A stretch of 5,526 nucleotides of DNA from a virus (Duplodnaviria; Heunggongvirae; Uroviricota; Caudoviricetes). Made by a program: the position numbers and the translations under genes. The first letter of the stretch is position 1; every line of letters begins with the position of its first letter. A model generated the notes under the pieces. It was not told the origin of the DNA and did not search any database. It saw nothing but the letters and a program-made list of their open reading frames with translations. This document shows positions 1,623 through 2,905 of this stretch, in pieces. The stretch lies in the IMG/VR virus record IMGVR_UViG_2671180669_000010; one strand, written 5' to 3'.

Positions 1623-2264
1623 TTACCGCCCAATTACCACAACCTGACCACCATCCCCTTCATCTGCCGTGCTGATCTCCTGAGATGCCACACGTGACCC
1701 CACGCGCATTTCACCGTACAGAACAGGCAGGACATTGCCCTGGGCAACCATGTTATCCAGTGAGGAGAAATAGGTGTTCTGTTTGCCGTTATCCGTTGTC
1801 TGTGTACGGGGAGTTCTGGCTTTCGGTGCCAGCATCTGCGCCACACCACCAAGCGTCATCGCCGCACCCATTGAAAAGAGAATGTCACTGAAAGCGATAC
1901 TGATCCCCGGCATCCAGATTGCCGTAGCAATCAACGCCGCACCCAGCACCGCCTGAAACACACCGCCACTTTTTGCTCCCGCAAGACGCGGCACGATGTG
2001 GATCACGGCACCATTTGCCAGCGGCTCATTAAGACGGGATGATAATTCGGTTTCTCCTGCATCCCGCCCGGCAATCCGTACCTGATACCAGCCATCGCTC
2101 AGTTTCTGACGAAACGCCGGGAGCTGTGTGGCCAGTGCCCGGATGGCTTCAGCCCCCGTTTTCACACGAAGGTCGATGCGGCGGCCAAATCGTTGCAAAT
2201 CCCCGTAAAGGCAGATGCGTGCCATGCCCGGTGACGCCAGAGGGAGTGTGTGCGTCGCTGCCAT
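1623..2264 (-). CDS. I: Tail assembly protein I (213 aa)
   Basis: Starts MAATHTLPLASPGMARICLYGDLQRFGRRIDLRVKTGAEAIRALATQLPAFRQKLSDGWYQVRIAGRD... and ends ...NTYFSSLDNMVAQGNVLPVLYGEMRVGSRVASQEISTADEGDGGQVVVIGR, matching lambda gpI at both ends as I recall it. The Gly/Ala-rich hydrophobic middle is about 10 residues shorter than the 223-aa lambda protein. Its start overlaps the 3' end of K by 103 nt in another frame, as in lambda. A downstream ATG at 2225 is an alternative start. Confidence 0.9.
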   Translation of the reverse strand: MAATHTLPLASPGMARICLYGDLQRFGRRIDLRVKTGAEAIRALATQLPAFRQKLSDGWYQVRIAGRDAGETELSSRLNEPLANGAVIHIVPRLAGAKSGGVFQAVLGAALIATAIWMPGISIAFSDILFSMGAAMTLGGVAQMLAPKARTPRTQTTDNGKQNTYFSSLDNMVAQGNVLPVLYGEMRVGSRVASQEISTADEGDGGQVVVIGR

Positions 2265-2905
2265 TTGTCGGTGTACCTCTCTCGTTTGCTCAGTTGTTCA
2301 GGAATATGGTGCAGCAGCTCGCCGTCACCACAGTAAATGGCGGCATGATTCGGCACCGATGAACCAAAACAGCACAGCAGCACATCGCCCGGCTGCGCCT
2401 CTGTCAGTGCGACACGGTAAAAACCAGTAGCCTCCATATTGTCAAGATAGAGATTCTGACCGTGACGCCACCAGTCATCCCCGCGATGAAAATTCGGCAT
2501 CTCAATCCCCGCCAGATGATAAGCATCCCGGAACAGCGTGTAACAGTCCGTCACCCCGTGCTCAAAGCGCCGCCCGGTGAGATGCGGCACACAGCGGAAC
2601 TTGTGAATCGCCCCCCGGCAGACCAGCCACCACGGCAAATCACTCTGCACCTGCAGCCGCCGGTCAGCCTCACTCAGCCAGGGCAGACCACCGGGGTGGC
2701 TGTGGACCAGCGCCACAATCTCACCCTGCATTTCTGCCTGCAGCCAGTCCTCCGGAGCCATCCGGAAATAATCCTCCGGCTCACCGGAAATATTCACGCC
2801 GGGAAAATATCTTTCCCCCTCCGGCGCTCTCACCACGAAGCCGCACGACTCCGCTGGCGCACATCGCCGGGCGTGCGCCAGAATCGCTGATTCTGTCTCT
2901 GTCAT
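2162..2905 (-). CDS. K: Tail assembly protein K (247 aa), N-terminal JAB/MPN metalloprotease-like domain plus C-terminal NlpC/P60-like domain
   Basis: Translation from the ATG at 2905 reads MTETESAILAHARRC... and contains an exact JAMM motif H-x-H-x7-S-x2-D (HSHPGGLPWLSEAD), then a C-terminal region with Cys (GVTDCYTLF) and His residues (VPNHAAIYCGDGELLHH) in the arrangement expected for an NlpC/P60 fold. Near-identical to lambda gpK. The classic 199-aa lambda annotation corresponds to the internal Met at 2761. The track's longer ORF from 2947 would overlap L by 38 nt and is less likely. Confidence 0.88.
   Translation of the reverse strand: MTETESAILAHARRCAPAESCGFVVRAPEGERYFPGVNISGEPEDYFRMAPEDWLQAEMQGEIVALVHSHPGGLPWLSEADRRLQVQSDLPWWLVCRGAIHKFRCVPHLTGRRFEHGVTDCYTLFRDAYHLAGIEMPNFHRGDDWWRHGQNLYLDNMEATGFYRVALTEAQPGDVLLCCFGSSVPNHAAIYCGDGELLHHIPEQLSKRERYTDKWQRRTHSLWRHRAWHASAFTGICNDLAAASTFV

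Follow-up and report, generated by a model that had tools for sequence, protein, structure and literature searches.

What removes the N-terminal domain from tail tip protein I of lambda-like phages, or from its F-pyocin counterpart PA0640, is a question now being asked, and it is raised again by the K/I gene pair analyzed here. The pair lies in a stretch of 5,526 nucleotides (nt), referred to below as the window, from the IMG/VR virus record IMGVR_UViG_2671180669_000010 (Caudoviricetes), in which all the long coding frames are on the minus strand. A first-pass annotation, made from the letters alone, had pointed to K as a peptidase gene and to I as the protein that K is predicted to process. 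Our analysis established that K of 247 amino acids (aa) is a real gene. By sequence profiles and the structural model, its product folds compactly and contains two intact predicted peptidase domains, a JAMM/JAB metalloprotease at the N-terminus and a papain-like NlpC/P60 domain at the C-terminus. We regard as nearly certain the identities of the genes, the long frame of K and the assignment of domains; on the evidence given below, K is probably the enzyme that cuts I, which we hold with some reserve. The features of K were located as follows.

2162-2905, minus strand: gene K, tail tip assembly protein (JAB + NlpC/P60 peptidase), 247 aa, from its open reading frame (ORF), homologues and AlphaFold2 model
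2591-2905, minus strand: JAB/MPN+ domain of K, spanning about residues 1-105 and with them the 48 residues that the classic lambda annotation omits, from PF14464, the model and Foldseek
2849-2851, minus strand: codon of Glu19, the catalytic Glu of the JAMM motif (ExCG), nearly invariant in 30 homologues
2663-2704, minus strand: HSHPGGLPWLSEAD, K residues 68-81, with the zinc ligands H68, H70 and D81 and with S78 of the JAMM motif, read from the sequence
2234-2575, minus strand: NlpC/P60 (C40, papain-like) domain of K, residues 111-224, from PF00877, conservation and Foldseek
2543-2545, 2345-2347 and 2309-2311, minus strand: codons of the NlpC/P60 triad Cys121, His187 and His199, from the alignment

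The reading frame of K opened with ATG at 2905, four bases (TCCC) after the stop codon of L (TAA at 2912-2910), and closed with TGA at 2164-2162, as the first-pass annotation had proposed without naming the strand. Because K has no Shine-Dalgarno sequence and begins 4 nt past the L stop, it is probably started by translational coupling to L. The polymorphic sites within codons 1-48 fell on the first, second and third codon positions in 9, 7 and 26 of 48 cases, and in the remainder of K in 42/166, 24/166 and 94/165. This variation, weighted to the third position in the first 48 codons as in the rest of the gene, argued that the long frame is coding. Met49, the start used in the classic lambda annotation, was replaced by Ile in many K homologues of a 30-sequence alignment reaching down to 32% identity, and is thus not a conserved start. 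A library scan gave 1679 matches below 1e-10 among 1.84 billion representative proteins; many of the listed matches were full-length proteins of about 230-260 aa aligned from their first few residues (3-15). K loci in genomes were collected with a 10-sequence K alignment as query. Both domains were present in every diverse K tested (236-260 aa), namely those of HK97-like, T1-like, Pseudomonas, Ralstonia, Mannheimia and Stx phages. Since the JAB domain needs residues 1-48 and E19 falls within them, the long form is the real one.

The two domains were then well delimited by Pfam, in which the matches to K and I all exceeded the gathering scores. PF14464 (Prok-JAB) covered K residues 4-98 with an expectation value (E) of 2e-13 (50.5 bits against a cutoff of 25), and PF00877 (NLPC_P60) covered residues 111-224 with E 2e-12 (47.4 bits against 23). 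The JAMM motif E...HxH-x7-S-xx-D was intact (E19, H68, H70, S78 and D81, of which residues 68-81 lie at 2704-2663), and its residues, including E19, aligned with those of the JAB protein 2kks, whose Glu corresponds to E19. In the 30 homologues H68, S69, H70 and D81 were invariant and S78 nearly so. The same was found for the second domain, with H187 and H199 invariant and C121 nearly invariant. Thus the intact JAMM motif and the NlpC/P60-type arrangement of Cys and His residues that had been read from the letters were both verified. The alignment of K and I with lambda and lambdoid homologues, proposed at that time as a check, showed the catalytic residues of K to be conserved in homologues with as little as about 32% identity.

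The AlphaFold2 model of the 247-aa K had a predicted local distance difference test score (pLDDT) of 93.7 and a predicted template modelling score (pTM) of 0.88. Residues 1-40 were modelled at pLDDT 92-97, and the N-terminus was folded into a helix (3-15) and two strands (21-27 and 30-36), all within the same pLDDT range; C121 opened the helix 121-131. Foldseek matches of the model fell into a JAMM group, comprising P. furiosus JAMM1 (free and SAMP2-bound), AMSH, Rpn11 and CSN5 with E 1e-4 to 1e-3, and an NlpC/P60 group, comprising MepS/Spr and the C. difficile autolysins (Acd). The match of K to the NCBIfam desampylase model was weak (score 27 against a cutoff of 130), therefore K is not a member of the desampylase family itself.

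The presumed substrate, I, was divided in the same manner, and the following features were recognized.

1623-2264, minus strand: gene I, tail tip assembly / plug protein, 213 aa, from its ORF, lambda gpI chains and PF06805
1974-2225, minus strand: predicted ubiquitin-like (Ubl; beta-grasp, MoaD/ThiS-type) domain of I, residues 14-97, from Pfam, the model and matches in the PDB
1962-1979, minus strand: glycine motif G96-A-K-S-G-G101, which closes the Ubl domain and is the predicted cleavage region, from a 19-homologue alignment
1626-1895, minus strand: C-terminal plug domain of I, residues 124-213 (lambda gpI 134-223), aligned to the 90-residue gpI chains of 9e7m
1870-2079, minus strand: mosaic divergent patch of I, about residues 62-131, covering the C-terminal half of the Ubl domain and the hydrophobic linker, from DNA identity

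I matched the lambda gpI chains 8iyk, 8iyl, 8k35 and 8xcg with E 6e-109, and PF06805 (Lambda_tail_I) covered its residues 14-97 (E 4e-24, 85.1 bits against a cutoff of 23.8). The AlphaFold2 model of I was built from a shallow alignment and reached a mean pLDDT of 46.8. In this model residues 1-12 were unstructured, and the following region (pLDDT 53-65) consisted of strands 15-19 and 29-32, helix 37-47, strand 60-64, helix 71-78 and strand 87-92, an order of strands and helices over residues 14-94 that fits the beta-grasp fold. The top 25 PDB matches of the model were nearly all MoaD, SAMP, Urm1, ubiquitin or SUMO, with template modelling scores (TM-scores) by target of 0.6-0.7. With moderate support from profiles and model, the N-terminal domain of I can be regarded as ubiquitin-like, in agreement with the earlier description.

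In the 19 I homologues, which reached down to 32% identity, this domain of about 85 residues closed with the pattern P92-x-x-x-G96-[AS]-K-x-x-G101, in which G96 was invariant and G101 nearly so. The motif was followed by a hydrophobic Gly/Ala-rich linker of a length that varies across the family, then by a conserved LGGVAQML and the C-terminal domain, whose motifs are conserved as well. Compared to lambda gpI, the I of the window was 10 residues shorter through a single gap in the hydrophobic linker, and the DNA identity to lambda dropped to 53-63% over 2079-1900 between flanks of 87-100%; the 30-column block that holds the 30-nt gap (1899-1870) was 30% identical. Both the shorter middle segment of I and the mosaic variable patch suspected there were thus borne out. 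A second, smaller patch that diverges from lambda (73-87% identity) was observed at 2380-2499, in the NlpC/P60 domain of K, at about residues 136-175, between the catalytic Cys and His.

That K processes I had been put forward as a prediction of comparative genomics, and it was traced to Iyer, Burroughs and Aravind 2006 (PMC1779556), who predicted that the JAB domain of K frees the Ubl domain of I by cutting at its C-terminal Gly; the processing itself is something we infer. In the mechanism proposed here, K would bind the Ubl domain of I as a deubiquitinase binds ubiquitin, and the JAB site of K would cut I at the glycine motif between G96 and G101. The cut would free the Ubl domain, and K itself, after the tip docks to the tape measure and tube. 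The NlpC/P60 domain, for its part, may cut I a second time or may have a different tail protein as its target.

Several lines of evidence are consistent with this proposal. Cryo-electron microscopy of lambda revealed only residues 134/135-223 of gpI, which form a trimeric plug in the tail tip lumen gripping the gpH C-terminus (PMC10721106, PMC12617516), and K was not detected in lambda virions by mass spectrometry or cryo-electron microscopy (PMC10721106, PMC12617516). The sole gpI peptide found by mass spectrometry was reported with 9.87% coverage, a value that among the gpI tryptic peptides is matched only by the C-terminal 22-mer. In a preprint on the F-pyocin, PA0640's N-terminal region was found in stalled tips and was missing from mature particles by mass spectrometry, not by density alone. 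The same preprint describes PA0639, the homologue of K, as essential and as missing from particles, and its authors call the cleavage mechanism unknown. K and I were also adjacent or overlapping in nearly all the loci fetched, and families of K-I and JAB-I fusions exist.

Several points weigh against K as the enzyme that cuts I. Our literature search found no paper testing K on I and none naming the protease. In the F-pyocin preprint, mutants that retain the K homologue still show the PA0640 N-terminus in their stalled tips, and recombinant PA0640 loses its N-terminus in E. coli to unknown host proteases; K alone is therefore not sufficient and maybe not necessary. The missing gpI density in lambda could reflect disorder rather than cleavage. 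Finally, because the model of I is of low confidence (mean pLDDT 46.8), the match to the Ubl fold combines a weak model with sequence profiles.

An alternative with some weight is K as an assembly chaperone whose peptidase folds only bind I, the N-terminus of I being merely disordered in virions or trimmed by host proteases. The loss of the PA0640 N-terminus in E. coli without the K homologue, its persistence in stalled tips that hold the K homologue and the lambda structures, which give missing density only, would all be expected of such a protein. However, both K domains keep their catalytic residues with little or no change in homologues as distant as about 32% identity, which would be unexpected for pseudoenzymes retained for binding, and conservation extends to the glycine motif that closes the Ubl domain. 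Moreover, the N-terminal peptides of wild-type F-pyocin are missing by mass spectrometry as well as from the density. A chaperone role without catalysis is therefore considered unlikely, though it deserves to be kept in mind.

An extended form of the processing scheme was judged decidedly unlikely as a whole. Here K would be a two-step maturation protease acting as an assembly checkpoint, in which JAB removes the Ubl cap only after docking and NlpC/P60 cuts again, in the I linker or in the tape measure (gpH to gpH* plus gpHC). If this is true, a Ubl domain and a deubiquitinase module would make up a self-removing assembly lock in a virus.

It was also considered, as a rather improbable case, that the NlpC/P60 domain does the cutting, of I or of another tail protein such as the tape measure gpH, and that JAB mainly recognizes the Ubl domain. 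There are phages whose K has NlpC/P60 alone, and most eukaryotic deubiquitinases are papain-like (both Iyer et al. 2006, PMC1779556); in addition, the catalyst of the gpH to gpH* cleavage is unknown (PMC12617516). Yet every diverse K tested here had both domains, its JAMM residues were conserved equally to its Cys and His residues, and the solved structures nearest to its JAB domain belong to enzymes that truly cleave Ubl proteins (JAMM1 with SAMP2). A further point against this alternative is that, in the classical pathway of lambda assembly, K does its work before gpH is added.

The database name "C40 family peptidase" would suggest a virion-borne cell wall hydrolase that breaches peptidoglycan at infection, and the NlpC/P60 domain does resemble the peptidoglycan endopeptidases MepS/Spr and the clostridial autolysins, but this is very improbable for a protein that was undetected in lambda virions by mass spectrometry and cryo-electron microscopy, whose F-pyocin homologue is absent from particles, and that lacks a signal peptide, shares its chain with a JAB domain and is always encoded beside a Ubl gene. 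Processing of I by K stays the preferred explanation, and the conserved JAMM and Cys/His residues mapped here, together with G96-G101, provide a residue-level map for mutational tests.

The 199-aa form of lambda K, with its start 48 codons downstream, required an explanation of its own. The first-pass annotation had treated it as a choice of Met; the short annotation does exist, and its cause was found instead in the lambda reference sequence (NC_001416/J02459), which lacks one base. In the reference the K frame is closed upstream of Met49, and the alignment showed that it is short of one G after position 14266, between GGAGGC and TATTTCC. The missing G splits the 247-codon frame, hence the 199-aa annotation. 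This G was present in the window, in all close relatives and in four lambda-derived records (PV340536, LC730321, DE3 and lambda imm21). The exact 26-nt lambda context with the G was found in 42 of 141 fetched loci, and only the reference locus lacked the G. At least 14 contigs were 100% identical to lambda over 1-2.8 kilobases (kb), most of them in assemblies of unrelated bacteria, and all have the G. Over 2.7 kb the missing G was the sole difference between the reference and re-sequenced lambda. As judged from these comparisons, the classic short lambda K is an artefact of the reference sequence, or at most a private mutation of the sequenced stock.

In our literature search no paper was found that states the missing base in J02459. 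The lambda sequence notes of a commercial supplier reportedly list an extra G at 14266. Newer lambda records give K as 247 aa, and others still copy the short form; clusters of 199-aa K with thousands of members stand beside clusters of 247-aa K (clusters P0050, P0057, P0059 and P0066). Gene callers choose Met49, which has GGAGG 11 nt upstream, even on intact 247-codon ORFs (e.g. locus L142, 557-1300). The K lambda entries of RefSeq/GenBank are still listed at 199 aa, without half of the JAB domain and without the catalytic Glu, since Glu19 lies upstream of Met49. This truncated K has been analyzed in structure-prediction and review papers, and only "a peptidase domain" was found in the 199-residue K in PMC7291167. 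An explanation of the discrepancy between 199 and 247 aa is thus a useful by-product of the present work.

Two side observations were made in these comparisons. The contigs 100% identical to lambda belonged to assemblies named Neobacillus, Shewanella, Chromatium, Pseudomonas, Paenibacillus, Bradyrhizobium, Leeuwenhoekiella and others, and several were about 48.4-48.5 kb long and of low coverage; in the unrelated assemblies they are almost certainly lambda DNA contamination. The annotated K of Salmonella phage SPN3UB (215 aa; locus 390-1037) matched the JAB profile only from position 50 on, and its start was probably mis-annotated in the same manner as that of lambda K.

The start of I determines how far the two genes overlap, and the following two features depend on it.

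2162-2264, minus strand: 103-nt overlap of K and I, the latter read in the -1 frame relative to K, from the coordinates
2275-2279, minus strand: GAGGT, a Shine-Dalgarno-like sequence 10 nt upstream of the I ATG at 2264, from conservation

The frame of I ran from ATG at 2264 to TAA at 1625-1623 (213 aa). As 2905-2264 equals 641 nt, which is 2 modulo 3, I lies in the -1 frame of K. The out-of-frame overlap of 103 nt before the end of K that had been noted earlier agreed with these coordinates; because the overlap is set by the I start, it holds only if Met1 is accepted, and comparison supported Met1. Public records place the start in at least three ways, at Met1, at Met14 or at a GTG overlapping the K stop, and across protein clusters it was called at three or four different positions.

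For this comparison the lambda clade was represented by the window, lambda, a Stx phage, E. albertii, two Citrobacter, two Edwardsiella, Providencia and Xenorhabdus. Of these, lambda, the Stx phage, E. albertii, Citrobacter, E. anguillarum, Providencia and Xenorhabdus retain both the Met1 ATG and a GAGGT spaced 10-12 nt from it, and E. piscicida has the Met1 ATG with AGGAG in place of GAGGT and a spacer of 11 nt. In five relatives in the clade the Met14 position lacks an ATG. Upstream, a second clade (Budvicia, Limnobaculum, Chania and others) shows a stop or lacks an ATG, and its I starts at the Met14 equivalent with its own GGAGG. These sequence comparisons supported Met1 as the I start in the lambda clade and the Met14 equivalent in other clades, a result that can be used to settle the annotation.

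Met14 had been a candidate for the true start in the lambda clade as well. Distant homologues show similarity from residue 14 and have their own starts at positions 10-14 of the window I, many RefSeq models start there, and residues 1-13 of I look unconstrained. It was rejected on account of the five relatives that lack this ATG, all of which keep the Met1 ATG and a Shine-Dalgarno-like sequence.

The 103-nt overlap is accordingly supported by comparison for the element of the window, and is a feature of the clade, not of the family: overlaps in other clades are only 4-20 nt or absent. According to the models, window 2162-2225 is dual-coding: it specifies K residues 230-244, a confidently modelled C-terminal helix, and also strand 15-19, the first in the Ubl domain of I, and from Met14 to the K stop the polymorphism matches the codon pattern of I. 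In this same segment lies the K motif FTGIxNDL, which is conserved across many homologues; for I it spells RICLYGDLQRFG, the first strand of the Ubl domain with its loop. A programmed ribosomal frameshift producing a K-I fusion, like that of lambda G/GT, would suit the -1 frame and the fusion proteins and PHROG fusion family in databases, but there is next to no chance of it, since no X XXY YYZ heptamer was found in the 139 nt over which I has an open frame (one GGGG is the sole homopolymer run), I is itself equipped with a conserved ATG and a Shine-Dalgarno-like sequence, the observed fusions are mostly singletons arising from deletions or frameshifts, and the overlaps of other clades are short or lacking.

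The fusions themselves are varied. The PHROG fusion families phrog_30, phrog_28576, phrog_35166 and phrog_31 contain L+K, K+I, JAB+I (without NlpC/P60) and I+J, and natural K-I fusions formed by small deletions were seen in E. coli genomes (P0031, L138).

The remainder of the window completed a lambda tail tip block of the order H-M-L-K-I-(insert)-J, with these neighbours.

3934-5526, minus strand: H, cut by the window end, from its ORF
3608-3937, minus strand: M, from its ORF
2910-3608, minus strand: L, from its ORF
1211-1549/1561, minus strand: ORF of the AT-rich insert, 112-116 aa, from its ORF
56-1144, minus strand: start of J, cut, from its ORF

In addition to the K and I families given above, Phage_tail_L, Phage_min_tail and the FNIII-A domain of J were identified by Pfam, and the DNA was 87-100% identical to lambda except in a few patches. 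E. coli chromosomes hold stretches 100% identical to the tested segment of I, insert and J, and for this reason the element is regarded as a lambdoid prophage of E. coli. The insert of 460 nt between I and J (window 1145-1622) had a G+C content of 30-43%, compared with 55-61% in its flanks. Its 112-aa ORF carried a lipoprotein signal (MNKTILFCTIIALTG followed by C) and matched phrog_914, a family of unknown function, and a terminator-like hairpin was located at 1167-1187, after the ORF. The insert was present in 334 complete E. coli genomes and was absent from lambda and from all 266 phage records matched. In these properties it looks like a moron.

Compared with known systems, the pair is closest to lambda gpK/gpI. 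The gene order L-K-I-J, the 103-nt overlap, the domains and the catalytic residues are shared, and K and I of the window are 92% and 81% identical to those of re-sequenced lambda. It differs from lambda in the shorter I, divergent over residues 62-131, and in the AT-rich insert with its lipoprotein-like ORF between I and J, and from the lambda reference record in the length of K, which is 199 aa there owing to the missing base.

The F-pyocin genes PA0639 and PA0640 of Pseudomonas aeruginosa offer a more distant parallel. By the account of the preprint, PA0639 shows homology to gpK, and gpI has a structural homologue in PA0640; of the plug, the C-terminal part alone is seen, the N-terminal domain being removed during maturation. 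Unlike the present element, the F-pyocin is a tailocin and not a phage, and the preprint does not tie the cleavage to the JAB domain. A related Pseudomonas phage pair is about 34-36% identical, PA0639/PA0640 themselves being likened through the description in the preprint.

The archaeal desampylases Haloferax HvJAMM1 and Pyrococcus JAMM1 share the JAMM fold with K and cleave MoaD-like Ubl proteins at a C-terminal Gly-Gly. Pyrococcus JAMM1 (5ld9, 5lda) gave the best solved JAB matches to K, and SAMP1 was a top match to the Ubl domain of I. In contrast to the desampylases, which are minimal stand-alone JAMM proteins, K adds an NlpC/P60 domain; there is no E1-type conjugation here, and the Ubl domain is made already fused to its "substrate".

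The TAPK/TAPI system of Iyer, Burroughs and Aravind 2006 (PMC1779556) was an exact fit without any difference: it too has a Ubl domain whose C-terminus bears Gly, then a linker rich in glycine and a small C-terminal domain, flanked by a gene with JAB and NlpC/P60 domains. In that paper I was held not to be incorporated into the tail, and later structures show that its C-terminal domain is incorporated (PMC10721106, PMC12617516). All the sequence-level features of membership tested were found in the window, and all parts of the pair match the known system, so that the earlier remark on mostly known biology was apt: this K/I pair is a typical, already known member of the lambda K/I (TAPK/TAPI) type.

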